Shown piece after piece: positions 18,474 through 42,434 of a stretch of DNA of 42,434 nt; positions within the stretch are counted from its first letter, which is position 1; every line of letters begins with the position of its first letter. The position numbers and the translations under genes are program-made. Under the pieces are notes generated by a model. That model had not been told where the DNA came from. It did not search any database and worked only from the letters and a program-made list of their open reading frames with translations. The stretch is from Enterococcus phage vB_Efm3_KEN20, in the sequence record PP582174.1. One strand, written 5' to 3'.

Positions 18474-18992
18474 TCACACCTCCTTATATTTGAATGTGTA
18501 TCCTTTTGTTTGCTTTTGTTTACCTAAACATACATCACAAATACTCCTCCTAGATACACCTAGTTCTTCACTCGCATAACGAGCGTTGATATAGACTTTT
18601 CCTGTTTCAACACAATATACTTCCTTAGACATTTTAATTAGTGCTGTACGAGTTCTATTTCCGTGATTAATATTCTCTTTTCTAGTCACCCATTCTAAAT
18701 TTGATACTTTATTGTTAGCTTTGTTCTCGTCAATATGATTAATTTGTGGCTTATTTTCTGGGTTTGGTATGAAAGCTTGTGCGACTAAGCGATGAACTGA
18801 ATATCCCTTACTTTTACTGTTCTTACATAGAATAACATTTTCATATCCATTGGGTCTAATTGAGGTTGATTTAATTCTACCTTTCAATCTATGATTTGCG
18901 CTATCTAACCTATCTACACTTCTAACTCTACCTAAGTTGCTAATTTGATACAACCCGTCATATCCTTTTATATCTTTCCAAACTTCTTCCAT
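18474..18992 (-). CDS. HNH homing endonuclease (NUMOD4/HNH_3 type), paralog A
   Basis: MEEVWKDIKGYDGLYQISNLGRV...HRLVAQAFIPNPENKPQINHIDENKANNKVSNLEW...GYTFKYKEV. Start moved to ATG 18992 (RBS AAAGAGGAGG). Own TGTGCTATCATAAT promoter upstream. Its 3' end encodes the terS RBS. Confidence 0.8.
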   Translation of the reverse strand: MEEVWKDIKGYDGLYQISNLGRVRSVDRLDSANHRLKGRIKSTSIRPNGYENVILCKNSKSKGYSVHRLVAQAFIPNPENKPQINHIDENKANNKVSNLEWVTRKENINHGNRTRTALIKMSKEVYCVETGKVYINARYASEELGVSRRSICDVCLGKQKQTKGYTFKYKEV

Positions 18993-19048
18993 AAATAAAA
19001 CCTCCTCTTTCATACTATTATGATAGCACAAATAAAGGAGGTTGTCAA

Positions 19049-19234: not shown

Positions 19235-19593
19235 GTGTTTCTACCTCCCTTACTTTAGTTTGTTGAGTTAAACAAAACTCCCTTACATACCTTATTATAT
19301 CATATAAAAAGAACCCTGTGTAAAGAAACCAGGGGTCAATCATGTTTATAGGGGGAACAATCGTATAAGCGAAATAACATACTATATATAGTATGAATCC
19401 TTGATTTTCAACACAAGAAACCAGTTTTTAATTACATTTTACGAGGGAAAAGGACGTTTTTCAAAGTTGGTTTGGGGACTTTTATGTGAAGAAGAGGGGG
19501 CAGCGATTAATTCGTTATAAAAAGGTGGGCGGGTAAAAACATTTTGGTCTCCCTAAAAATATTTTTGTCTGCGCGCTTGTTTATTTAGCGCTG
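19235..19593. other. Candidate cos / packaging-recognition region
   Basis: ~360-bp non-coding stretch between the packaging HNH and the terS cluster. Strand-biased purine/G blocks (gaagagggggcagcg 19488-19505; ggtgggcggg 19524-19533). 18-bp perfect palindrome catactatatatagtatg at 19378-19395. Confidence 0.35.
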
Positions 19594-20759: not shown

Positions 20760-21260
20760 CTCCTTCTCTTTGTTTCTATTATATCATAGATAAGGGATAC
20801 TGTGTTGGTTAACGGAACCAGTTGGCTTTATTAATTAAATAACAAATTTAAAATGTTGCGTTTTTAATAATGACGTAAAAATGTCAGTGGTAAAATGCTT
20901 TAATATCAACTATTACAGCTATTATTCTCTAATGAATGACATACGAATGACAAACGGAAAATGGCTGTATCCTTTCTCTCCCATAGCTTTTAATATGTTA
21001 TTGACATTATGACATATTATACTTATAAAAAATAAAATATAATAATACATTATCATGTAGTAACTATATATTTCCGTTTAAAATAAAATGGGGTGTCATT
21101 TTGTCATCATATCAAACATGGTCTCTCAAATGTTGATAACTCAACGTTTCTTACATTTATAATTAATGACAAAAAAGTCATTAATTATTTAGATGAGATA
21201 ATAGTTGACAATTGTATCAATAGATGGTAACATTGGTTTATAAATTAAAAGGAGGAAACA
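20760..21260. promoter_or_regulatory. Divergent early control region with an array of TGACA/TGTCA half-sites (operators or origin iterons) and divergent promoters
   Basis: AT-rich 500 bp between the two arms. Half-site pairs at 20871-20887, 20937-20952, 21002-21015, 21095-21108, an 18-bp palindrome aatgacaaaaaagtcatt at 21165-21182, and 21204-21220. Leftward TGATATAAT promoter near 20790-20800. Confidence 0.5.
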
Positions 21261-21263
21261 AAT

Positions 21264-21551
21264 ATGACTTTCAATATAATTGAGTTCAGTAATTATGAAG
21301 TAACTAAAGGAGGCATTGTATATAATAGATACCATAAACCTATTAGGCGAAAATGGGTTGGTAATAATATATACACAAAAATATATGATAGTGACAAGAA
21401 AGCACGCACAGTAAGAGTTGATAAATTAGTCTATCAAACATATGTACAAAATCCACCTTATAACTATGAATTAGAACATATTGATGGTAATCAAGCTAAC
21501 TGTAAATTAGAAAATTTAAAATATATATCACCCAAGAATAAAGTAAAATAG
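21264..21551 (+). CDS. Small HNH_3-like protein (truncated homing-endonuclease-like)
   Basis: 95 aa; ...NYEVTKGGIVYN...ELEHIDGNQANCKLENLKYIS resembles the NUMOD4 + HNH core; RBS AGGAGGA. Confidence 0.45.
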   Translation: MTFNIIEFSNYEVTKGGIVYNRYHKPIRRKWVGNNIYTKIYDSDKKARTVRVDKLVYQTYVQNPPYNYELEHIDGNQANCKLENLKYISPKNKVK

Positions 21552-21563
21552 GAGGACTAAACA

Positions 21564-21851
21564 TTGGAAGTAACATTTACTGGAACACCACACGAAATCA
21601 TGCAACAATATGATCACTGGCTAAAAACACTTGACCTTGAACAAACGCTACTATATAATAGAATCATAATCACAGGTAATAAAACAGACAAAGTACCATT
21701 ATCAGAGTATAAAAAAGTAATTCAACAAATTGCAATTAATAATGGAGGAGGAATAAAAAATATTGACAATGAAATCATGAGCTGCTACAATGTAGAAAAG
21801 AAACGATTTAGCAATGGTTTTTATATCACAGGAATCAAAATAAAACAATAA
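21564..21851 (+). CDS. Hypothetical protein (TTG start)
   Basis: 95 aa; RBS TAGGAGG 8 nt before TTG. Confidence 0.45.
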   Translation: MEVTFTGTPHEIMQQYDHWLKTLDLEQTLLYNRIIITGNKTDKVPLSEYKKVIQQIAINNGGGIKNIDNEIMSCYNVEKKRFSNGFYITGIKIKQ

Positions 21852-21856
21852 ACCAG

Positions 21857-21885
21857 TTGACACTGGTTTCAACTCATGCTATACT
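21857..21885 (+). promoter_or_regulatory. Sigma-A-type promoter TTGACA-N17-TATACT with palindrome AACCAGTtgacACTGGTT over the -35
   Basis: Exact consensus -35 and 17-nt spacer; followed by gaggagg RBS and ATG 21917. Confidence 0.6.
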
Positions 21886-21916
21886 TAATTCATAAGTTAA
21901 GAGGAGGAATAAAACA

Positions 21917-22201
21917 ATGACAAACACAGTATCAGTTTTAATCAAATCAAGCAAGAAAGAAACTCAATATAGATACGGTAAAGAACTTATCAATATTGAT
22001 CGCAGAACATTACAGCAAATTAATGGTACAACAAGCCAAGTTTTCGTAGCCAGCGAACCTCAACGATTGCTTAAAGACGTTAGTGAGTTCAGAGACGGTC
22101 TAACATATTCTCATACAGAAAGTATTAAAATAAACCCTCAATTTATTTGGTACGTTGATGACATGCCAAATATGAGAAATTATGGCAATCTTTTCAAATA
22201 A
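21917..22201 (+). CDS. Hypothetical protein
   Basis: 94 aa; RBS GAGGAGGA. Confidence 0.5.
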   Translation: MTNTVSVLIKSSKKETQYRYGKELINIDRRTLQQINGTTSQVFVASEPQRLLKDVSEFRDGLTYSHTESIKINPQFIWYVDDMPNMRNYGNLFK

Positions 22202-22205
22202 AAAG

Positions 22206-22234
22206 TTGACACAGATCAACAAGCATGCTATACT
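22206..22234 (+). promoter_or_regulatory. Sigma-A-type promoter TTGACA-N17-TATACT
   Basis: Same architecture and same downstream 5'UTR (ta(g/a)ttcataag(a/t)taagaggagga) as the promoter at 21857. Confidence 0.6.
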
Positions 22235-22265
22235 TAGTTCATAAGATAAGAGGAGGAAAACAACA

Positions 22266-23608: not shown

Positions 23609-23986
23609 ATGACAATATTAAAACGGTACAAATGTATAAAATCAAATGATGAACAAAGATTTGCTGTGGGAGAAATATATCCATTATATAATAACGGTTA
23701 TAAAAATTACGTTGTAGCGAATAATAATGTGAATTGGTATGAAAATGAATTTCCAATTATTAAACGAGACTATGGTATTGAATTTGAGGAGGTAAAAGAA
23801 AAAATATTTGATCTAAACAAACTGATCACATTAACCAGAATTGATGAAAACACGGTATATGTAAACATTAATCACATTGCAGCTTTCTATCACAACAAAG
23901 CTTGGGAATATACTATTGTTATACTGTCAGACGGTACTCAATTAGATATAAAAGACTCAGTAGAATCAATTGCTAACTATTTTTAA
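23609..23986 (+). CDS. Hypothetical protein
   Basis: 125 aa; RBS TAGGAGGA. Confidence 0.5.
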
Positions 23987-24015
23987 TCAAAAGTATAGCA
24001 CAAATGAAAAGTTTG

Positions 24016-24024
24016 TGTTATACT
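24016..24024 (+). promoter_or_regulatory. Extended -10 element TGtTATACT ahead of HNH paralog B
   Basis: Matches the -10 TATACT of the early promoters; no clear -35. Confidence 0.35.
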
Positions 24025-24047
24025 CATTACATAAGGGGGAATTAATA

Positions 24048-24557
24048 ATGAATGAAATTTGGAAAGATGTTAAAGATTATGAAGAACTCTATCAAGTGAG
24101 TAATTTGGGAAGAGTTAAGCGAGTTAATACTAACCGTATTTTGAAGGGTAGTAAAGAACCAATAGGCTATCTAAGAGTTAGATTATCTACAAACGGTATT
24201 GTATCTACTAAGAAAATCCACCGTCTAGTAGCAGAAGCATTTATCCCAAACTCTGAAAACAAACCACAAGTAAACCATATTGATGAGGATAAGACAAATA
24301 ACATGGTTTCAAATCTTGAATGGTCTACAAGTAAAGAAAATAATAACCACGGAACACACAATATAAGATCGGCTAAAACGCGAGGTATTCCAATCATTGC
24401 AACTAATATAAAAACCGGAGAATATCAAGAGTTCTATGGAACAGCTGAATGCGCTAGACAATTAGGTTTACATCAACAAAATATCACATCAGTATTAAAA
24501 GGTAGACTGAATCAAACTGGGGACTACACGTTTAAATATAAGGAGGAATTAAAATAA
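24048..24557 (+). CDS. HNH homing endonuclease (NUMOD4/HNH_3), paralog B
   Basis: [26 protein letters not shown]...[35 protein letters not shown]...[12 protein letters not shown]. Start at ATG 24048 with AAGGGGGA RBS. The ORF-track N-terminal extension lacks an RBS. Confidence 0.8.
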
Positions 24558-26155: not shown

Positions 26156-26653
26156 ATGAAAGAAATTTGGAAAGATATTGAAGGATATGAAGGCGTTTAT
26201 CATGTGAGTAACTTAGGACGAGTGAAGAGAGTTGCAACAAATAGAGTTTTACAACCATATAGAAACAAAGTTGGCTATTTACTAGTTTATTTATGTAAAA
26301 ACGGTAAGCGTAAAACTCATAGAATCCACCGTTTAGTAGCACAATCTTTCATACCAAACCCAGAAAATAAACCAGAAGTTAATCACCTAGATGAAAATAA
26401 GATTAATAATATGGTTTCAAATCTAGAATGGTCAACTAGAAAAGAAAACTGTAACTATGGAACGCGTAATGAAAGACTGAGTATCCCAATCATAGCAACT
26501 AATCTAAAGACTGGTGAATCTAGAGAGTTCTATGGATCAAATGAATGTGCTAGACAATTAGCATTAAATACCGCACACATTACAAGTGTTCTAAAAGGTA
26601 GATTGAAACAAACAGGTGGATACACATTCCAATATAAGGAGGAAGAGGAATGA
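26156..26653 (+). CDS. HNH homing endonuclease, paralog C
   Basis: [26 protein letters not shown]...[35 protein letters not shown]...GGYTFQYKEEEE. Confidence 0.8.
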   Translation: MKEIWKDIEGYEGVYHVSNLGRVKRVATNRVLQPYRNKVGYLLVYLCKNGKRKTHRIHRLVAQSFIPNPENKPEVNHLDENKINNMVSNLEWSTRKENCNYGTRNERLSIPIIATNLKTGESREFYGSNECARQLALNTAHITSVLKGRLKQTGGYTFQYKEEEE

Positions 26654-30196: not shown

Positions 30197-30203
30197 AAAT
30201 TAG

Positions 30204-30232
30204 TTGACACCCCTTAAATGGGGTGTTATACT
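30204..30232 (+). promoter_or_regulatory. Sigma-A-type promoter TTGACA-N17-TATACT with spacer palindrome CACCCCttaaatGGGGTG
   Basis: Exact consensus and spacing; perfect 6-bp inverted repeat inside the spacer. Confidence 0.6.
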
Positions 30233-30260
30233 TAGTACATAAATAAGAGGAGGAAGCAAA

Positions 30261-31001
30261 ATGAAACAATTAAGACTGAAGAAGAATGGTAAAGCACCAC
30301 TAGTGGCTGGAGCGTTCAATGGAGAATCAGAAGAGTTAATTCAAAAATGGATACAAGAAGGGGGTAACGTTGGAACACTAACCGGGTCAAAAAGTGGCAT
30401 TGCAGTCATTGACATTGATAATCATAATGGAGTGGATGGTCTTGGTAACTTGAAAGAGTTCTTAGATACGTATGACATCACTTTACCAAAAACGCAAGTC
30501 ATTAAAACTCCAAGTGGTGGACTACACTACTACTTTAAATTAGATGAAAAATACAATGACACGCAATTCATTCAAAACCATTCACAACTTGCAGGGGTTG
30601 ATTTCCAAGTCCACGGCAGGTACGTTGTAGCACCACCTAGCCAAATTGATGGTAACTATTATAAGGTAGTACGTGACGTAGAAATGGCAGAATTACCTGA
30701 GAAATGGTTAGAAATATTCACAGATAAAAGTATTACTAAAAAGAATAAACCTCGCGAGAAGAAATGGACTGGTCAATTAATGGAAAGTATACTTACTGGC
30801 GCAGGAGCAGGGTCAAGGAATATATTTTTAGCCTCAACAATTGGCAAGCTATTCGCAACAGGAATGGATCATGACGCGGTTAGGGTATGGAGTTTATACG
30901 TAAACCAGATTTCATTAAATCCACCACTACCAGAAGAGGAGGTATTACGAACATATGACTCAGTTAGAAAACGTGAATTACGAAGAATGGCGGACAATTA
31001 A
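30261..31001 (+). CDS. Prim-Pol type DNA primase (bifunctional primase/polymerase N-terminal domain)
   Basis: [10 protein letters not shown]...GGLHYYF...GRYVVAPPS pattern typical of the Prim-Pol catalytic domain; RBS GAGGAGGAAG. Confidence 0.6.
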
Positions 31002-31488
31002 AGGATATGAAGGTATTTATGAAATAAGTAGTTTTGGTAGAGTTAGAAGTTTGAATTACAATAACCAAAAAGGAAATATAAAAGTTAGACCAAGTGTTCC
31101 TCATAAACATGGGTATAGACAAATTAAACTAGGTAATAAAAGCAAATTAATACACCGCTTAGTAGCAGAAGCATTTATCCCAAACCATGAAAATAAACCT
31201 TGTGTTAATCATCTGGACGAGGATAAGACAAATAATAGAGTTGATAACTTAGAATGGGTAACAAAGAAAGAAAATAACAATTATGGTACTAAGAATATTA
31301 GAAGCGCATACAAGAATAAATACATTTCTGGAAACTTCAAATCCGTTATATGCTCAAATGGAGTAGAGTATTTTAGTGTGTCAGAAGCTTGTCGTCAATT
31401 AGATTTAGACCCAAGTACTGTCGTAAAAATTCTAAAAGGTACACGTAAAAGTACAGGAGGCTACACATTTAAATATAAGGAGGAGTAA
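30955..31488 (+). CDS. HNH homing endonuclease, paralog D (overlaps the 3' end of the Prim-Pol gene)
   Basis: ...[24 protein letters not shown]...[35 protein letters not shown]...[10 protein letters not shown]. Confidence 0.75.
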
Positions 31489-31707: not shown

Positions 31708-31767
31708 AACGAGAGGAGGGAGGAGGAATCCCTATAATTAATTATAGCATAAAATAAAAGTTTTGTG

Positions 31768-31828: not shown

Positions 31829-32140
31829 ATGTTTAATGAATCTGAAGAACTACAGAATACACTTGATAAAATAATACAGGGTTCACGTATTACAGGCAGT
31901 GTATTTGAACCTGAAGAATTAAAAAATACAAAACGCTACAAAACCAGCTCAGGTAAACAACTCTTTGACGTGCTAGAAGATGATTTACTAACTTATGAAG
32001 AATTACGTGGTTTCTACAAAGCGAACATTTACAAATATACACACAGATATAAACAAAAAAACGGCATTGAAGATTTGAAAAAAGTAAAGGTCTATGTAGA
32101 TCAACTAATAAAACTGGAGGAAAAACAAGATGAGATTTGA
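31829..32140 (+). CDS. Hypothetical protein (possibly DUF3310-like)
   Basis: 103 aa; the segment LFDVLEDDLLTYEELRGFYKANIYKYTHRYKQKNGIEDLKKVKVYVDQL resembles small conserved phage proteins; unverified. Confidence 0.4.
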   Translation: MFNESEELQNTLDKIIQGSRITGSVFEPEELKNTKRYKTSSGKQLFDVLEDDLLTYEELRGFYKANIYKYTHRYKQKNGIEDLKKVKVYVDQLIKLEEKQDEI

Positions 32141-32600
32141 ACCATTAAACGAACCCTATGATATGTATGCAATAACAGATGAAGGTCACGTGTTTCATTT
32201 AGACAAAGAACGATATGAACAAGAAATAGTTGATCCAAAAAATGGAAAGATGTATGTAGTACTTAACGGATCACACAAAAAGTCACGTAAATTCTACGTC
32301 TCTCAATTAGTAGCAGATATGTTTGTTAGAAATGAGCATAACTTAGGATATTTATATTTCAAAGATGGTAACGTACAAAATAGTCATTACACAAATATTG
32401 GTTACGCTATTAATCCAAAAGAAGGGGTAGAACGTGTGGCACGTCCTTTCAGAAATAAAGTAGAGCCAAAACGCCATGCCTTGATTGTTGCTATTGGAGA
32501 AGCGTGTGAGAAAAAGGATTGGAAAGAAGCTAATAAACTAGGAAAAGAACTTTGGCAATTGGAGGGCGCATCGTATGAAAACAGAAACCATGAGTTTTGA
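32130..32600 (+). CDS. Degenerate HNH_3-like protein (catalytic His replaced)
   Basis: VSQLVADMFV...LYFKDGNVQNSHYTNIGY parallels HRLVAEAFI...[15 protein letters not shown] of the HNH paralogs but lacks the first His; RBS GGAGGA. Confidence 0.4.
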   Translation: MRFEPLNEPYDMYAITDEGHVFHLDKERYEQEIVDPKNGKMYVVLNGSHKKSRKFYVSQLVADMFVRNEHNLGYLYFKDGNVQNSHYTNIGYAINPKEGVERVARPFRNKVEPKRHALIVAIGEACEKKDWKEANKLGKELWQLEGASYENRNHEF

Positions 32601-35334: not shown

Positions 35335-35363
35335 AATAAAGTAAAAAGAGTTGACCTTATGTG

Positions 35364-35393
35364 TTGACTCTTTTCTTTTATCATGCTATTATA
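35364..35393 (+). promoter_or_regulatory. Promoter TTGACT-N18-TGcTATTAT with the shared 5'UTR motif attatataaatataga
   Basis: Tandem GTTGAC motifs (35350-35369); same -10/UTR block as at 26911-26926. Confidence 0.45.
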
Positions 35394-35422
35394 TAAATAT
35401 AGAAATAAGGAGGATGAATAAA

Positions 35423-35935
35423 ATGAAAGAAATTTGGAAAGACATTGAAGGGTATGAAGGATTATACCAAGTAAGTAACTTGGGGAGAGTGAAAAGAGTT
35501 ACAACAGGTAGGATTTTGAAAGGTGGTAAAGATAGAGGTGGCTATCTAATAGTTAGCTTATATAAAAACAATATTGAATCTAAAAAGTTAATTCATCGTC
35601 TAGTAGCTCAAGCTTTTATACCAAACACTGAGAATAAACCACAAGTTAATCATATAGACGAAGATAAAACAAATAATATGGTTTCAAATCTAAATTGGAT
35701 GACAGCTAAAGAAAACTCAAATCATGGAACACATAATGAAAGAATGAGTAAAACGAAAAGTATTCCAATCATTGTAACTGATATTAAAACTGGTGAATCT
35801 ACAGAGTTCAATAGTGGTAAAGAATGTGCTAGACAATTAGGTCTGCATAAGCAAGGTATTAGCGCAGTTCTAAAAGGTAAACTCAGACAAACTGGAGGCT
35901 ACACATTCAAATACTTAAATGAAGGAGTAGACTAA
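35423..35935 (+). CDS. HNH homing endonuclease, paralog E
   Basis: [26 protein letters not shown]...[35 protein letters not shown]...GGYTFKYLNEGVD; start at ATG 35423 (AAGGAGG). Confidence 0.8.
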   Translation: MKEIWKDIEGYEGLYQVSNLGRVKRVTTGRILKGGKDRGGYLIVSLYKNNIESKKLIHRLVAQAFIPNTENKPQVNHIDEDKTNNMVSNLNWMTAKENSNHGTHNERMSKTKSIPIIVTDIKTGESTEFNSGKECARQLGLHKQGISAVLKGKLRQTGGYTFKYLNEGVD

Positions 35936-39297: not shown

Positions 39298-39301
39298 ACA
39301 C

Positions 39302-39330
39302 TTGACACCTCTTAACTGAGGTGTTATACT
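39302..39330 (+). promoter_or_regulatory. Sigma-A-type promoter TTGACA-N17-TATACT with spacer palindrome ACACCTCttaacTGAGGTGT
   Basis: Exact consensus; 7-bp inverted repeat in the spacer; shares the 5'UTR ttaat(a/t)aagttaagaggagga with the other early promoters. Confidence 0.6.
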
Positions 39331-39359
39331 TAATTAATAAGTTAAGAGGAGGAATTAAA

Positions 39360-39545
39360 ATGAAAAAAGTGTATATTGTAATTGATACAGAAATTTGGTG
39401 TAACGTTGCAGTAGGTTTTACTGAAAAGCAAGTCATAGAACAGACAATGAAGCAGGATGTTTATTTTGCAACAGAGCAATCCTTCCATGAAAATTTTGGA
39501 GATAGATACTGTGTAGAAACTTGGGAAGTTGAGGAGGAAGAATAA
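39360..39545 (+). CDS. Hypothetical acidic protein
   Basis: Start at ATG 39360 downstream of the promoter; the ORF-track start lies upstream of the predicted transcription start. Confidence 0.5.
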   Translation: MKKVYIVIDTEIWCNVAVGFTEKQVIEQTMKQDVYFATEQSFHENFGDRYCVETWEVEEEE

Positions 39546-39766
39546 TGATTAAAATTTATACTAAAAACAACTGCATGCCTTGCAAAATGACGAAGAACTG
39601 GTTTAAAGGCAAAGGACACACCTTCACTGAGGTGAATGTAGATGATAACCTAGAAGGGTTAAATGAATTACTTACTATGAACCTAAGAACACTACCTGTA
39701 GTGTTTAAAGATGATGAGTTTGTGAGTATGGGGTTTGCACCAAATAAATGGGAAGAATTTAAGTAG
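39545..39766 (+). CDS. nrdH: NrdH-like glutaredoxin (CxxC redoxin)
   Basis: 73 aa, IKIYTKNNCMPCKMTK...LPVVF thioredoxin-fold pattern with a CMPC active site; RBS GGAGGAAG. Confidence 0.6.
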   Translation: MIKIYTKNNCMPCKMTKNWFKGKGHTFTEVNVDDNLEGLNELLTMNLRTLPVVFKDDEFVSMGFAPNKWEEFK

Positions 39767-39808
39767 GGAGGAAGATTAGTGTTGAAGAACACACTTATTT
39801 CTCTAAAA

Positions 39809-39846
39809 AAGTGTGTTCTTCACGAGCATTCTAAGCACTTTAAATT
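39809..39846. repeat. Direct repeat R1 (~38 bp) at the 3' flank of the lysis cassette; partner at 41553-41589
   Basis: agtgtgttcttcacgagcattctaagcacttttaaatt versus agtgtgtctctcacgagcattttaaggcgtttaaatt; cores TCACGAGCATT and TTTAAATT are identical; R1 also forms an inverted repeat with 39783-39793. Confidence 0.6.
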
Positions 39847-39882
39847 AATCAAACAATGTAATTACCCAATTAAATACAAAAG

Positions 39883-39910
39883 AAAACCACTGGACTAACC
39901 AGTGGTTTTT
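39883..39910. terminator. Bidirectional intrinsic terminator aaaaccactgg-actaa-ccagtggtttt at the convergence of the two arms
   Basis: 11-bp perfect stem flanked by A-run and T-run between nrdH (+) and the endolysin (-). Confidence 0.75.
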
Positions 39911-39912
39911 TG

Positions 39913-40890
39913 TTATAAGCTCAAATAGATTGAGTCAATTCGTACATCGTTTACTGCACCTTCACCATTAGATTTATTAGCTCTACGTAAAATCACATCT
40001 ACTTTTTTACCTTTGAACTGGTTCTTATTGACTGTTACATCAAAACCAAGTTCTTGTCCACCTTGATAACCGTATGCTTTCTTCACGTCTGGGCGTTTAA
40101 TGCCAGCAGATTGAACACGTGTCAACTCTTTACCAGTGCCATGTTGCATAAAGATGACATACGCATATTTTCCAATTGGACCTTGTGGTTTATCAGGAAC
40201 TAACCAACCAGCCACACGAATTTGGTCTTTACCATGACCATTAAAGTAATCAAGTTTACCCCATGCATTACCTTGATGTTTTGCTGGACTTGCAGCTACT
40301 GCCTTATCATGTTGACTAGGTGTTGAAGGCTTAGATGGTGTTGGTGCTGGCGCTGGAGAAGGTTTGTTGTTACTTTTAGCGTTAGCCACATCACTTCTAA
40401 ACTGAGCTAGATTGATACCCCATTTAGCAAGATATGGAATAGGGTCAACATGGTCAGAACCATTATTTGGTTGATTATGTGTTGCATAGTTATGTGTGAT
40501 GATACCAGTGTTACCTTGGTCAACGGTGGTAGGTAAGCCTGCTTGTTTTGCTAAGTCATGCAATAACTCACAATAAATCTTATAATCACGCATGAACTCA
40601 TCTCTATTAGAGTGGGATTCAATTAATTCAACTGAAGCATAACCCCATTGATTCCAACCTCCACCAACATCCCATGCGCCACGATTAACTTCAGCTAGTT
40701 GGATTACACGTCCATTACCTACAAGGTGAGTATAAAAACCAGTGTTGATGTCTTTAGTCTGAAAATAATCTGCCTCGTTTTGTGCTGTACTACGTGGGTT
40801 ACCTGTACTGTGGGCGTGTACTTGACCATATGGAGCATATCCAACTTGAGGCAACCCTGGTCTAATTCGTCTTTCTACTTTATAAGCCAT
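39913..40890 (-). CDS. Endolysin: N-acetylmuramoyl-L-alanine amidase (Amidase_2/PGRP domain) with Pro/Ser/Ala linker and C-terminal cell-wall-binding domain
   Basis: 325 aa; N-terminal PGRP-like catalytic region (..HSTGNP..), linker [16 protein letters not shown], distinct C-terminal domain; last gene of the lysis cassette. Confidence 0.8.
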
Positions 40891-40906
40891 ATTATCACTC
40901 TCTTTC

Positions 40907-41188
40907 TTATTTCTTTGGTTCTGTATAATTTAATGCTTTTTCACTATCTGTAATACCTTTAGTTGTTGGGTCTGGAATCATGTTCAATGCATTAATCACC
41001 GTTAGTCCTAAAACGTATGGGTTACTAATTGCACGAACCAACACATCTAACAATGTATCAAAGGATGTAATATCCTCAAACTTCAAACCAAAGTAAGCTA
41101 GGATAGGTACTGCTAATGCTCCAATAAAACGCAAGATAAATGTTAGGTTGTCTTTGCTAAAACGAACTTTCCAGTTGATTTTTTTCAT
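40907..41188 (-). CDS. Holin (LL-H/phage_holin_1-like, 2 TM)
   Basis: 93 aa; ...[38 protein letters not shown] is a characteristic C-terminal region of this holin family. Confidence 0.6.
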
Positions 41189-41200
41189 TCTACATCACTC

Positions 41201-41488
41201 CTATTTCATAAATAAGGATAAACCAATACTAATTAATGCACCAATAACTGCGCCAACAGTTGTACGTGTTAGCCATGTATAGCTGTTTTTGAGGTCAGCT
41301 AATGCCTCTCTATTCTGCATGGACATGCTATACGCCTTATCTGCTTTCTCAGATTGGCGTTCTAAGCGGCTACCATACTCTTTCAAGTCAGCTTTAATCT
41401 CAGGTATATCATTCAACTTTACCTCAATTCTTGCTAACTGTTCTTTCAATGAAACAAACTCCTTATCATTTAAGTTCATAGCAAACAC
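41201..41488 (-). CDS. XhlA-like holin/hemolysin-family membrane protein
   Basis: 95 aa; N-terminal coiled-coil and single C-terminal TM (TTVGAVIGALISIGLSLFMK); RBS AGGAG. Confidence 0.5.
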   Translation of the reverse strand: MFAMNLNDKEFVSLKEQLARIEVKLNDIPEIKADLKEYGSRLERQSEKADKAYSMSMQNREALADLKNSYTWLTRTTVGAVIGALISIGLSLFMK

Positions 41489-41528
41489 TCCTATTCATTT
41501 ATCACCTCGTTTCCTAGGTCTGTAATCA

Positions 41529-41537
41529 TTATATCAT
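41529..41537 (-). promoter_or_regulatory. Extended -10 promoter TGaTATAAT (minus strand) for the lysis cassette
   Basis: Same -10 as the leftward early promoter at ~20790; lies ~15-25 nt downstream of repeat R2. Confidence 0.4.
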
Positions 41538-41552
41538 CTATATAAGCGAAAT

Positions 41553-41589
41553 AGTGTGTCTCTCACGAGCATTTTAAGGCGTTTAAATT
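41553..41589. repeat. Direct repeat R2, partner of R1 (39809-39846), at the 5' flank of the lysis cassette
   Basis: See R1; occupies roughly -60 to -25 relative to the lysis promoter. Confidence 0.6.
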
Positions 41590-41626
41590 TTGTTAGGTGA
41601 GTGATTATGCGTTTAAAAGCAAATAA

Positions 41627-41651
41627 AGAACTCTCATTTAGAGAGTTCTTC
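41627..41651 (-). terminator. Hairpin aagaactctc-attta-gagagttctt
   Basis: 10-bp perfect stem overlapping the stop of the 81-aa gene. Confidence 0.5.
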
Positions 41652-41897: not shown

Positions 41898-42434
41898 TTA
41901 TGCTAAAGCCCAAGCTTGATTAGTAAAATAAGTTACTGATCCTTGATAGCTCTCAGTACTTGTTGACCCTCCAGGTACTGATGGAATATAAATAAAGTTG
42001 AATGAAGGATCAGTATATAATGAAACAAATGAGCCACGATTACCCGTTGAAGCTAGATAGGTTGAGGAATCAAGATAACTATATGGTCTATACCCGTTAG
42101 GAATGTTTGATAATGTGACCCATCCGTTTGCGGTTAATCTGTCAAACTTAATAGCAGCTGTCACTATTTGTCCAAAACGTCTATACTCAATACGACCGTT
42201 AGCGTAGTTTGTTGTATTTGGAATTGTTACAATCCGTTGCTTAATACCACTCATTGATTCTAATAACTTAGCATCTAACACGCCATTATACGTACCAGTG
42301 CTATCACTTAAGTTCAATTGTAGTAATCCACCAGAAAGTTGTGCGCTACTCTCACTCGTTTTAGTACCTTCTTCATTGTACAGTTTTTGTCTAACTTCCA
42401 GAGACCCTCTAGTCAAGTATGCTTCATTGTCTGC
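41898..42434 (-). CDS. Tail fibre / receptor-binding protein, C-terminal part of the wrap-around gene that starts at 535
   Basis: Frame continuous with 1..535 through the 127-bp duplicated ends; the ORF-track 'start' is an internal TTG. Confidence 0.6.
   Translation of the reverse strand, partial: ADNEAYLTRGSLEVRQKLYNEEGTKTSESSAQLSGGLLQLNLSDSTGTYNGVLDAKLLESMSGIKQRIVTIPNTTNYANGRIEYRRFGQIVTAAIKFDRLTANGWVTLSNIPNGYRPYSYLDSSTYLASTGNRGSFVSLYTDPSFNFIYIPSVPGGSTSTESYQGSVTYFTNQAWALA

Follow-up and report, generated by a model that had tools for sequence, protein, structure and literature searches.

The lysis cassette of an Enterococcus phage is bracketed by two short and similar stretches of non-coding DNA in the same orientation, which raises the question of what these sequences do around the lysis genes. 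The DNA analysed here, referred to as the window, is the 42,434-nt record PP582174.1 of Enterococcus phage vB_Efm3_KEN20; it is complete and belongs to a siphophage of Enterococcus faecium in the IME-EFm1/Aramis group. Its lysis cassette, recognized from the open reading frame list and the annotation of relatives, occupies 39913-41479 on the minus strand and encodes an XhlA-like holin (41201-41479), a holin (40907-41188) and an amidase endolysin (39913-40890). A first-pass annotation of the sequence had offered two readings of the repeats: binding sites for a late activator controlling lysis timing, or recombination scars or sites that let the lysis module be swapped as a cassette.

A repeat finder aligns the copy behind the endolysin, R1 (39806-39846), with the copy before the holin genes, R2 (41549-41589), without gaps and in direct orientation. 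The two are identical at 33 of 41 positions (80%) and share a TCACGAGCATT core and a TTTAAATT tail, which confirms the claimed direct repeat pair of about 80% identity. A degenerate consensus of this box matches the window twice, compared to 0.00 matches expected from 100 shuffles, and a weight matrix built from 21 distinct copies and scanned over both strands returns R1 and R2 as the sole sites, in agreement with the claim that the genome holds no further copies. When the genome was shuffled 25 times with its dinucleotides preserved, no 41-nt direct pair scored above 31 (best scores 28-31, compared to 33 for R1/R2); the only pairs outscoring R1/R2 in the window are HNH endonuclease paralogues, repeated early promoters and an assembly overlap. 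The homology also extends past the box. The two copies can be aligned without gaps over approximately 75-80 nt, up to the base of the terminator hairpin in each, the spacer homology resting on a gapless alignment of 46 elements; the length of about 38 bp first assigned to the repeats was too short. Both copies have the same layout, consisting of the box, a spacer of about 40 nt and a terminator, and the hairpins of the two terminators are not themselves homologous.

R1 is located, as had been described, between nrdH (stop at 39766) and a bidirectional terminator. It lies on the minus strand behind the endolysin, between the terminator of that gene and the end of the convergent early operon. 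The R1 spacer (39847-39884, minus strand) is homologous to the R2 spacer, holds the T-tract of the terminator T1 and contains GGTAAT at 39861-39866. T1 (39883-39909), which has an 11-bp stem and T-runs on both strands in a terminator scan, ends both the endolysin gene on the minus strand and the early operon on the plus strand. The R2 spacer (41590-41626, minus strand) holds the T-tract of T2 and the sequence CATAAT at 41604-41609 (candidate -10, P0), and the intrinsic terminator T2 (41625-41651, minus strand) marks the end of the tail-gene operon. The four-class spacer consensus reads T-tract..TG.aTAAtcACC. R2 does lie upstream of the lysis promoter, on the minus strand, and is placed here at about -28 to -68, compared to the -25 to -60 first given.

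The 11-bp inverted repeat that had been reported at R1 is real, but its arms (39783-39800 and 39805-39822) are 18 nt long and 94% complementary. As DNA they form a near-perfect hairpin (39783-39822; -15 kcal/mol, z = -7.2) composed of the remnant of a kinase gene 3' end and the left part of R1. This hairpin is restricted to the lineage of the window, KEN18 and KEN21, where it accounts for three clustered mismatches between R1 and R2 (TCT versus CTC), and it is a lineage-specific side effect rather than a feature of the element. An integron attC-like site was rejected, as no hairpin is conserved beyond this one lineage, and no integrase was present among the open reading frames inspected, which were not searched exhaustively. 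In the window R1 is also enclosed by a 39-codon open reading frame on the plus strand (39779-39898), an out-of-frame remnant of a dNMP kinase gene; comparison with Aramis and other kinase-bearing relatives traces it to a kinase deletion between ATTAG(T/C)G(T/G)TGA microhomologies.

R2 is present in all 14 close relatives as well as in DELF1, and R1 in 12 of the 14 and in all Efquatrovirus loci examined; R1 has been lost from EF36P1-3, EhiS268 and DELF1 with no visible consequence. Relatives with the same lysis genes therefore do not lack the repeat, R2 being found in every one examined, and searches of the window, a genome collection and metagenomes show that it is not a generic intergenic motif. 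The 17-mer core has nine matches in 185,579 species genomes (one genome per species), all in unrelated taxa and none in Enterococcus, and a host origin was rejected; a metagenome scan returned the same phage group only, plus chance matches in GC-rich contigs. When the window is compared with phage 9184 and EhiS268, the fourfold-degenerate sites of the adjacent holin genes are only 60-68% identical, and yet the 18-nt core of the box is identical at 17-18 of 18 positions in both copies, which shows the core to be under constraint. Additionally, among 16 relatives collected without reference to the box, no column of its first 30 nt contains more than one variant sequence.

Conservation of the pair crosses the boundary of the genus. 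PhiSHEF2 and 27 further Efquatrovirus contigs carry the same R1/R2 pair around the lysis cassette. Between the window group and Efquatrovirus, the block comprising R2 and the promoter is identical at 74 of 100 gapless columns, compared to a nucleotide identity of 45% for the 5' UTR, 58% for xhlA, 56% for the holin gene, 49% for the lysin gene and 63% for nrdH; the corresponding lysis proteins are 36% (XhlA), 27% (holin) and 32% (lysin) identical. R2 is located within the most conserved non-coding block of the lysis region. The copies change in concert, both copies in the window group carrying TCGTGAGAG and both Efquatrovirus copies TCCT(A/G)TGAA, and CATCCAAA is common to all three copies in phage 9184. 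An unrelated Enterococcus phage of 72 kb has an identical 26-nt core within an extended non-coding stretch, and its relative EH802P2 keeps ACGAGCATTCT in a diverged box; no box was found in the lysis cassette of the 72-kb phages. The single box copy in 42 kb of EH802P2 led us to reject an iteron or replication origin, and a cos or pac site was rejected because the cos of IME-EFm1 (PMC4445525) maps to 19497-19525, approximately 20 kb away. We assign a negligible probability to the pair being a similarity by chance or the neutral remnant of an ancient duplication. The sequence is short and AT-rich and most of the relatives are closely related; nevertheless, chance is excluded by the shuffle tests, and neutral decay is contradicted by a core that stays intact next to holin genes diverged to this degree at fourfold sites, and by the conservation across genera.

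The conserved box would act as DNA, and not as RNA or as coding sequence. Coding constraint was rejected because the box is read in three different frames or is untranslated: the kinase frame runs through it as ..SRAF*, the remnant open reading frame and one in phage 9184 as ..SHE.., and the stops of the PnuC, GH13 and SHEF2 nrdH genes fall in its left part. Small open reading frames in the element (MRLKANK.. on the plus strand, MLVRD.. on the minus strand) were dismissed, as their length is not conserved and they have no ribosome-binding site. It is quite improbable that the element works as RNA, whether as a 3' UTR or small RNA on the plus strand (box, spacer and terminator) or as a leader on the minus strand. 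The plus-strand order of box, spacer and hairpin does outline a small RNA of about 100 nt, and the early-operon transcript includes R1 at its 3' end; yet RNAalifold yields zero consensus pairs on either strand (46 sequences in the early sense and 24 in the lysis sense, from two genera), and Rfam searches of the window region and of the non-coding region of the 72-kb phage returned sub-threshold noise only. Furthermore, T2 has no conserved T-run on the plus strand, no conserved plus-strand promoter lies upstream of R2, and the core is not complementary to other phage sequence; in a collection with one genome per species, none of the Enterococcus genomes matches it exactly on either strand. A Rho-utilisation-like C-rich tract was also discarded, the C/G skew being opposite in the two spacers (as judged by eye, not computed), and resemblances to CIRCE, MotA box, cre, WalR and sigma-54 sites do not hold when spacing or second half-sites are considered.

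Read along the minus strand, each copy presents the same order of terminator, T-tract, xATAAT, about 25 nt and CTTAGAAT-GCTCGTGAGAGACAC. The lysis operon has a control region of about 100 bp, of which R2 supplies the upstream three quarters; the box is followed, after 17 nt, by the extended -10 TGnTATAAT of the proximal lysis promoter, P2 (41528-41536, minus strand). The extended -10 of P2 is TGATATAAT, with a TG extension; there is no -35 hexamer, CACTAT occupying the -35 position. As a mutant design for P2, CCATATAAT is an altered form of TGATATAAT. P2 is present as TGnTATAMT in both genera at equal spacing from the box. R1 carries only the first 74 nt or so of this region and has no promoter at the distance equivalent to P2.

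The box contains a hexamer resembling a -10 element (P1), which reads TAAAAT in R2 (41571-41576, minus strand; TAGAAT in relatives) and TAGAAT in R1 (39828-39833, minus strand), where it is a candidate -10 with TTGTTT 17 nt upstream. CTTAGAAT is conserved to at least 90% in the 80 unique copies, which come from two genera, and their invariant stretch is gCTTAGAAT. In these copies the A at position 2 of the hexamer is invariant, the T at position 6 is nearly so, and variation concentrates at position 3 (TAAAAT or TATAAT), which is the conservation pattern of a sigma-A -10 element; three relatives have CAGAAT in its place. A promoter scan does not call this hexamer because it lacks a TG at -15/-14 and its -35 position is weak and variable (TTGTTT, TTACTT, CACCTA). 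Conservation of the 15 nt that lie downstream of this hexamer exceeds what a plain promoter normally shows, pointing to a bound factor. A search of the literature found no transcription start, transcriptome or binding data for these phages.

The late operon of the window contains five compact terminator-promoter junctions, in which TGnTATAAT begins 1-10 nt after the T-run, and the other late promoters have nACACA 14 nt upstream of the TG. The lysis element resembles these junctions, and tandem sigma-A promoters, in its placement right after the terminator T-tract and in the presence of xATAAT, TAGAAT and TGnTATAAT on the transcribed strand. It differs in that the lysis junction is the sole late junction with an insert of about 89 nt, composed of spacer and box. 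Only this insert is duplicated, and the ACACA at the lysis junction is 4 nt out of register.

These observations suggest that a non-coding DNA module controls transcription of the lysis operon and that R1 and R2 represent the conserved cores of its two copies, a reading to which we assign a probability of roughly one half. The module is most likely promoter or regulator-binding DNA, and old, and it is not a new kind of element. Each copy begins right after an intrinsic terminator on the minus strand, T2-R2 before the lysis cassette and T1-R1 behind it. The box would be an upstream promoter, with TAGAAT as its -10, in tandem with P2, or the docking site of a putative phage or host factor, or both, and would set the timing and strength of holin-holin-endolysin transcription separately from the tail operon. 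R1 would represent a long-kept paralogue without the proximal promoter, pointing into the 3' end of the convergent early operon. Since two genera have retained it and its changes parallel those of R2, R1 probably binds the same machinery; it may thereby drive antisense or interfering transcription, or serve as an insulator or a second operator at the meeting point of the early and late transcripts. The sequence comparisons show the repeat with its extent and conservation, the lack of RNA structure and the breakpoints; promoter or operator activity, a role for R1 and the existence of a binding factor are what we infer. Against the explanation count the absence of a gene for R1 to drive, the loss of R1 from several relatives, the weak -35 position of the box hexamer and the three relatives with CAGAAT. 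Moreover, the similarity of R1 could be maintained through gene conversion from R2 without R1 having a function of its own.

The first-pass interpretation as a whole is borne out in part. With regard to the repeats as sites of a late activator, the placement of R2, the conserved block and a promoter without a -35 are consistent with the proposal, without proving it, but no activator gene is recognizable, the box is itself -10-like and R1 lacks a promoter at the corresponding distance. Late or lysis promoters that depend on an activator and lack a -35 include the C-dependent Plys and Pmom of phage Mu, A3 of phi29, which is activated by p4, and Plate of the lactococcal phage TP901-1, activated by Alt. 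The lysis control region shares with them a good (extended) -10, the missing -35 and a conserved upstream block at approximately -30 to -70, and differs in having no nameable activator gene, no dyad or tandem sub-repeats, a second copy without a promoter and a block with -10-like hexamers of its own. When 20 small early open reading frames were searched against PHROGs, no regulator or activator gene could be recognized, a missing annotation being weak evidence in such a case.

A related possibility is that the two boxes form an operator pair for one dedicated DNA-binding protein, an activator or a repressor, which loops out the 1.7-kb lysis cassette or blocks polymerases coming from the convergent early operon, and that the likeness of the hexamer to a -10 is incidental; we regard this as doubtful. 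The core is non-palindromic, 18-26 nt long and conserved beyond the needs of a -10, with its centre near -49 relative to a promoter that lacks a -35 hexamer, and the co-oriented copies change in concert within each genus, all of which would suit an operator, as would the identical core in the 72-kb phage and its diverged version in EH802P2. Nevertheless, the PHROGs search provided no candidate protein, the box contains no internal direct or inverted sub-repeats, three relatives live without R1, and the 72-kb phages do without a box at their lysis cassette.

The edges of the boxes coincide with mosaic breakpoints. T2 is a breakpoint (41630-41650) in seven of the 14 relatives and KEN22 has a breakpoint at 39810, and what has been exchanged is, on the left of R1, a slot for accessory genes and, beyond T2, the genes for the tail fibre. 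The left edge of R1 is the precise end point of four different gene contents: a dNMP kinase, a longer kinase together with PnuC, a 400-aa GH13-like protein, and the kinase remnant. A joint arrival of R1 and the kinase gene was considered and discarded, because the Efquatrovirus R1 directly abuts nrdH. Chimeric boxes exist, including an R1 in LG62 with an R2-type left half and several R2 copies with an R1-type right half. In phage 9184 a third copy, comprising box and spacer without a terminator, lies at the 3' end of a two-gene insertion that splits the DNA polymerase gene. The lysis cassette itself is not exchanged as a unit: the catalytic domain of the endolysin has been exchanged in eight of the 14 relatives, with breakpoints at 40330 and 40910 that lie inside the cassette and not at the repeats, and the holins are 87-95% identical among close relatives. 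The suggestion of cassette exchange thus holds for the box edges and the chimeric boxes, but not for a swap of the lysis module. As the control module proposed above is conserved next to variable genes, it would also provide a homology patch for accessory-gene exchange.

The promoter-early stem-loop (PeSL) elements of T4-type phages are reportedly mobile regulatory cassettes that mediate modular shuffling. The sequences described here resemble them in that a stem-loop terminator precedes promoter-like sequence, direct repeats (T2-R2 and T1-R1) bracket a gene module, variable genes and breakpoints adjoin the copies, and the third copy ends an inserted cassette in 9184. They differ in that the module between the repeats is not the variable one, there are two copies (three in 9184) instead of dozens, the phage is a siphophage of a Gram-positive host, and about 60 nt of conserved non-promoter sequence separate the terminator from the proximal -10. 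Moreover, the pair is fixed around the lysis cassette in two genera and not scattered in hyperplastic regions.

It is conceivable, if unlikely, that recombination is the primary role of the pair, as a mobile or linker regulatory cassette of terminator and promoter-like sequence comparable to PeSL, and that regulation is secondary. Such a role would be in keeping with the four gene contents that stop at R1, the breakpoints on either side and the chimeric boxes; the third copy in 9184 is what would be expected if an excised one-copy circle had re-inserted, and Aramis and dArtagnan recombine readily in the laboratory (PMC11210271). However, only two copies are present per genome, other variable slots (methyltransferase and HNH genes) have no box, and the cassette between the copies does not move as a unit. 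Recombination alone would also leave unexplained an invariant core of 9-18 nt and a 100-nt block that outconserves the neighbouring genes across genera, and conserved DNA beside variable DNA always resembles a breakpoint. It is very improbable that the box is the recognition site of a free-standing HNH homing endonuclease, its conservation and the gene turnover arising from cleavage and repair. Five paralogous HNH endonucleases are encoded in the window, homing enzymes recognize long, asymmetric sites, and in the 72-kb phage an HNH gene belonging to this family is found about 200 nt away from the box; yet in the window neither R1 nor R2 has an HNH gene beside it, the distribution of HNH genes among relatives does not follow that of the box, and a genome with the enzyme and two intact sites would cut itself.

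Conserved sequences that bound or link modules at the junctions of mosaic phage genomes belong to the modular theory of Botstein and to subsequent studies of lambdoid and dairy phages. R1 and R2 are similar in being short conserved non-coding DNA at the edge of an exchangeable module, where breakpoints coincide, and dissimilar in being duplicated within one genome and in showing a position-specific constraint beyond the needs of recombination homology. In its most far-reaching and quite tentative form, the control module would consist of operators for a putative factor that bridges R1 and R2 or blocks convergent early transcription, and would constitute a lysis-timing switch in at least two genera as well as a portable accessory-gene joint, the latter in view of the third copy in 9184, where the polymerase gene is split.

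Phages of the IME-EFm1 group and Efquatrovirus are therapy candidates against vancomycin-resistant enterococci. Around their lysis genes, no other non-coding sequence is conserved as well as this element, which surpasses even the lysis proteins in conservation and is useful for understanding lysis timing. It offers a handle of about 100 bp for promoter mapping, for factor pull-down and for engineering lysis time or burst size. Finally, the slot just left of R1 is where accessory metabolic genes are gained and lost, and it is useful both for reading mosaicism in these phages and for placing payloads.

The 42,434-nt record is the complete genome of an Enterococcus faecium siphophage of the IME-EFm1 / IME-EFm5 / Aramis group, and over the repeat and lysis region Aramis, KEN18 and dArtagnan are 92-96% identical to it. 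Bases 1-127 are an exact copy of 42308-42434; this duplication is a k=127 assembly overlap from circular assembly, the true genome being 42,307 bp, and the same 127-nt artefact has been removed from related phages (PMC11210271). The cos site and termini of IME-EFm1 were determined experimentally (PMC4445525), and cos lies in KEN20 at 19497-19525 (GGGGCAGCG followed by ATTAATTCGTTATAAAAAGG), with one mismatch to those termini. Numbered from cos, the packaged linear genome has the lysis cassette and the two repeats at its midpoint. The + strand carries the early and replication genes (~21.2-39.8 kb) and the - strand those for packaging, head, tail and lysis; the two arms meet at a bidirectional terminator, T1 (39883-39909). 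The last late module, located between the repeats, comprises an XhlA-like holin (41201-41479), a holin (40907-41188) and an amidase (39913-40890).

The first-pass annotation had described direct repeats of ~38 bp bracketing this module, with nothing similar elsewhere in the genome, and both points hold. The box behind the endolysin (R1, 39806-39846) and that ahead of the holins (R2, 41549-41589) are in direct orientation and identical at 33 of 41 positions without a gap, and scanning the genome with a weight matrix from 21 distinct copies gives no third site. The best score in dinucleotide-preserving genome shuffles (n=25) was 28-31, never 33, and the degenerate consensus of the repeat has a chance expectation of zero. 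In an alignment of 46 copies from relatives, the R1/R2 homology runs gapless for ~80 nt, to the base of the terminator hairpin. The hairpins next to R1 (T1) and R2 (T2, 41625-41651) are mutually unrelated and differ from phage to phage. On the - strand each copy consists of the hairpin, a T-tract (TTTATTTGCTTTTAAA), xATAAT-CACC, ~25 variable nt and CTTAGAAT-GCTCGTGAGAGACAC, with the continuation ACTATTTCGCTTATATAGA-TGATATAAT present in R2 only. TGATATAAT is an extended -10 promoter (41528-41536) without a -35 hexamer, ~50 nt 5' of the holin start; relative to this promoter R2 spans about -28 to -68, near the first estimate of about -60 to -25.

The late promoters other than that of the lysis genes conform to nACACA-N14-TGnTATAAT, a weak -35 with an extended -10 (- strand; 20786, 19302, 17987, 17918, 13608, 10898, 10224 and others), and the late operon is cut into segments by five compact terminator-promoter junctions (17427, 15560, 9591, 5205 and 1983) in which the -10 lies a few bases past the T-run. 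The lysis junction alone has ~89 nt between terminator and -10, and this insert is the sequence duplicated behind the endolysin. The early promoters belong to a different repeated family, whose pattern is TTGACA-N14-TGnTATACT followed by a common leader; the cassette, TTGACA-N14-TG(C/T)TATACT and then leader plus ribosome-binding site (TTAATTCATAAGTTAAGAGGAGGAA), recurs on the + strand at 21836-21900, 22185-22250, 30202-30250 and 39300-39360 (copies 34-37/41 identical), and repeated regulatory cassettes are therefore normal in this phage. Late-type promoters antisense to the early region are found on the - strand at 31749 and 24000 (ACACA-N13/14-TGCTATAAT or TGCTATACT) and could drive late antisense transcription of early genes. 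The early control region (20870-21260) contains several ATGACA/TGTCAT motifs, such as aatgaatgacatacgaatgacaaa, ttgacattatgacat and ggtgtcattttgtcatcat, which may serve an early regulator as operators and bear no relation to the R box.

R2 occurs in all 14 relatives fetched as well as in DELF1. Of the 14, 12 also have R1; it is missing from EF36P1 and EhiS268, and likewise from DELF1. In a set gathered independently of the box, no column of the first 30 nt of R2 has more than one variant sequence, and no other part of the intergenic region varies so little. In comparisons of phage 9184 and EhiS268 with KEN20, the 18-nt core is retained at 17-18 of 18 positions in both copies, beside fourfold-degenerate sites of the adjacent holin genes that are 68% (9184) and 60% (EhiS268) identical, so that the core is constrained or homogenised rather than merely young. 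Conservation across genera is the most informative result of the analysis. XhlA, holin and lysin of the E. faecalis phage phiSHEF2 (Efquatrovirus) match their KEN20 counterparts at only 36%, 27% and 32% protein identity, and this phage carries a 56-nt direct repeat, 5' of xhlA and 3' of the endolysin gene, that is homologous to R2 and R1; the same pair occurs in 27 more Efquatrovirus contigs. From the T-tract to the proximal -10 the two genera align gapless over 100 columns, with 74/100 identical between KEN20 and SHEF2, as against 45% in the 5'UTR, 58% in xhlA, 56% in the holin gene, 49% in the lysin gene and 63% in nrdH. Conservation above that of all the surrounding genes marks this non-coding block as functional DNA. 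Across all four classes (80 unique copies), the universal positions are T-tract..TG.aTAAtcACC....gCTTAGAATgcTC.T..GA.aCAc.

An RNA element was ruled out by the lack of a consensus structure on either strand, of a matching Rfam family, of a conserved + strand T-run at T2 and of any conserved + strand promoter. Coding sequence was excluded, the box being read in three frames or none, as were host sequence, a cos site and an iteron, which leaves a signal at the DNA level, on the lysis-sense (-) strand. CTTAGAAT is invariant, with a conservation pattern like that of a -10 hexamer: A at position 2 of its hexamer is invariant and T at position 6 nearly so, and the third position drifts, giving TAAAAT (R2 of KEN20, R1 of the related contig L034) or TATAAT (R2 of SHEF2, R1 of RG1). 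The -35 of this hexamer is weak and variable, and the 15 nt past it are conserved above the needs of a plain promoter. The two copies vary jointly by genus (TCGTGAGAG in the KEN20 group versus TCCT(A/G)TGAA in Efquatrovirus), and CATCCAAA is common to the three copies of phage 9184. Such concerted change fits either a bound factor that co-evolves with the boxes or gene conversion of one copy by the other. None of 20 small early ORFs was recognised by PHROGs as a regulator.

The inverted repeat at R1, first recorded with 11-bp arms, is genuine and longer, with 18-nt arms; its hairpin does not belong to the conserved element. Only in the KEN20/KEN18/KEN21 lineage is the hairpin strong (-15 kcal/mol, z = -7.2). 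Aramis and RG1 have weak versions (-7.0 and -6.6), and neither IME-EFm1 nor R2 has one. The left arm of the KEN20 hairpin is the remaining 3' end of a deoxynucleoside monophosphate (dNMP) kinase gene of Aramis, RG1, 9184 and others that is deleted in KEN20 (39767-39898) between two imperfect 11-nt microhomologies, ATTAG(T/C)G(T/G)TGA. A ribosome-binding site, a GTG start and an out-of-frame 39-codon ORF remain, the last annotated as "hypothetical protein" in KEN18 and KEN21. Template-switch correction of quasi-palindromes is a known mutational process, and the three clustered R1/R2 differences (TTCTTC versus TCTCTC), exactly those that perfect the complementarity of the right arm, look to us like its product.

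The repeats had alternatively been read as recombination scars, or as sites at which the lysis module is swapped as a cassette. This reading is half right: breakpoints do lie at the box edges. The left edge of R1 is the exact end of four different gene contents: a dNMP kinase gene with its stop codon at the TAA within CTAAG, a longer kinase with a PnuC-like transporter, a 400-aa GH13-like protein (LG62), and the out-of-frame kinase remnant (KEN20, KEN18, KEN21, IME-EFm1). In identity profiles, KEN22 shows a breakpoint at 39810, and 7 of 14 relatives show one at the T2 hairpin (41630-41650), past which the tail-fibre genes diverge. Some boxes are chimeric: the left half of R1 in LG62 is of the R2 type, and the R1-type CTAAGCAC is found in several copies of R2. 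The module between the repeats is not exchanged whole: the holins are kept at 87-95% identity among close relatives, and the endolysin catalytic domain is swapped at internal breakpoints (40330 and 40910). Because conserved DNA beside variable DNA always coincides with breakpoints, recombination is treated here as a consequence of the element's presence and not as its purpose. The catalytic domain (40330-40910) exists in close relatives as two unrelated versions, in proteins of 325 and 341 aa with the same C-terminal wall-binding domain, and the C-terminal part has 82-87% DNA identity to endolysins of 18-19-kb Enterococcus podophages.

Copies of the box also occur away from lysis genes. The third copy in phage 9184, partly decayed, retains box and spacer with no terminator. 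It is situated in frame, close to the 3' end of an insertion of two genes (ABC-type ATPase and GNAT-like ORF) that splits the family-B DNA polymerase at residues 670/687 (contig L006:11-1452; MT939242.1 22564-26080). The second inserted ORF carries the last ~73 polymerase residues of this phage as an in-frame fusion, and an HNH ORF occupies the same point of the polymerase gene in EF36P1 and SSBHU. A 72-kb Enterococcus phage contig, otherwise unrelated, has a 26-nt identity to the box core (GTGTCTCTCACGAGCATTCTAAGCAC) in a non-coding region of ~2 kb, ~200 nt past an HNH gene (matches in such phages at L033:4567-4592 and L048:4495-4520); EH802P2 has a diverged version, and the lysis cassette of the 72-kb phages has no box. 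KEN20 itself has five free-standing HNH homing endonuclease paralogues (23970-24557, 26156-26653, 30955-31488 and 35351-35935 on the + strand, 18474-19031 on the - strand), the source of most long repeats of the genome, and further HNH-like ORFs at 21264-21551 and 32130-32600.

The R1/R2 repeat is real, and on this comparative evidence it appears to be a cis-acting, long-conserved part of the control region of the lysis operon that has a paralogue on the far side of the cassette; no account of it turned up in the literature searched. A transcriptional mechanism is the likeliest, with a probability of about one in two: the box would serve as an upstream promoter, an operator or both, setting lysis-gene expression apart from that of the tail operon, and R1 would act on the convergent early operon or as a second site. 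The module is of the same kind as repeated phage regulatory cassettes and as the upstream elements of late promoters without a -35, and is not surprising in principle; it would give experiments on when therapeutic Enterococcus phages lyse their hosts a good and precise handle.
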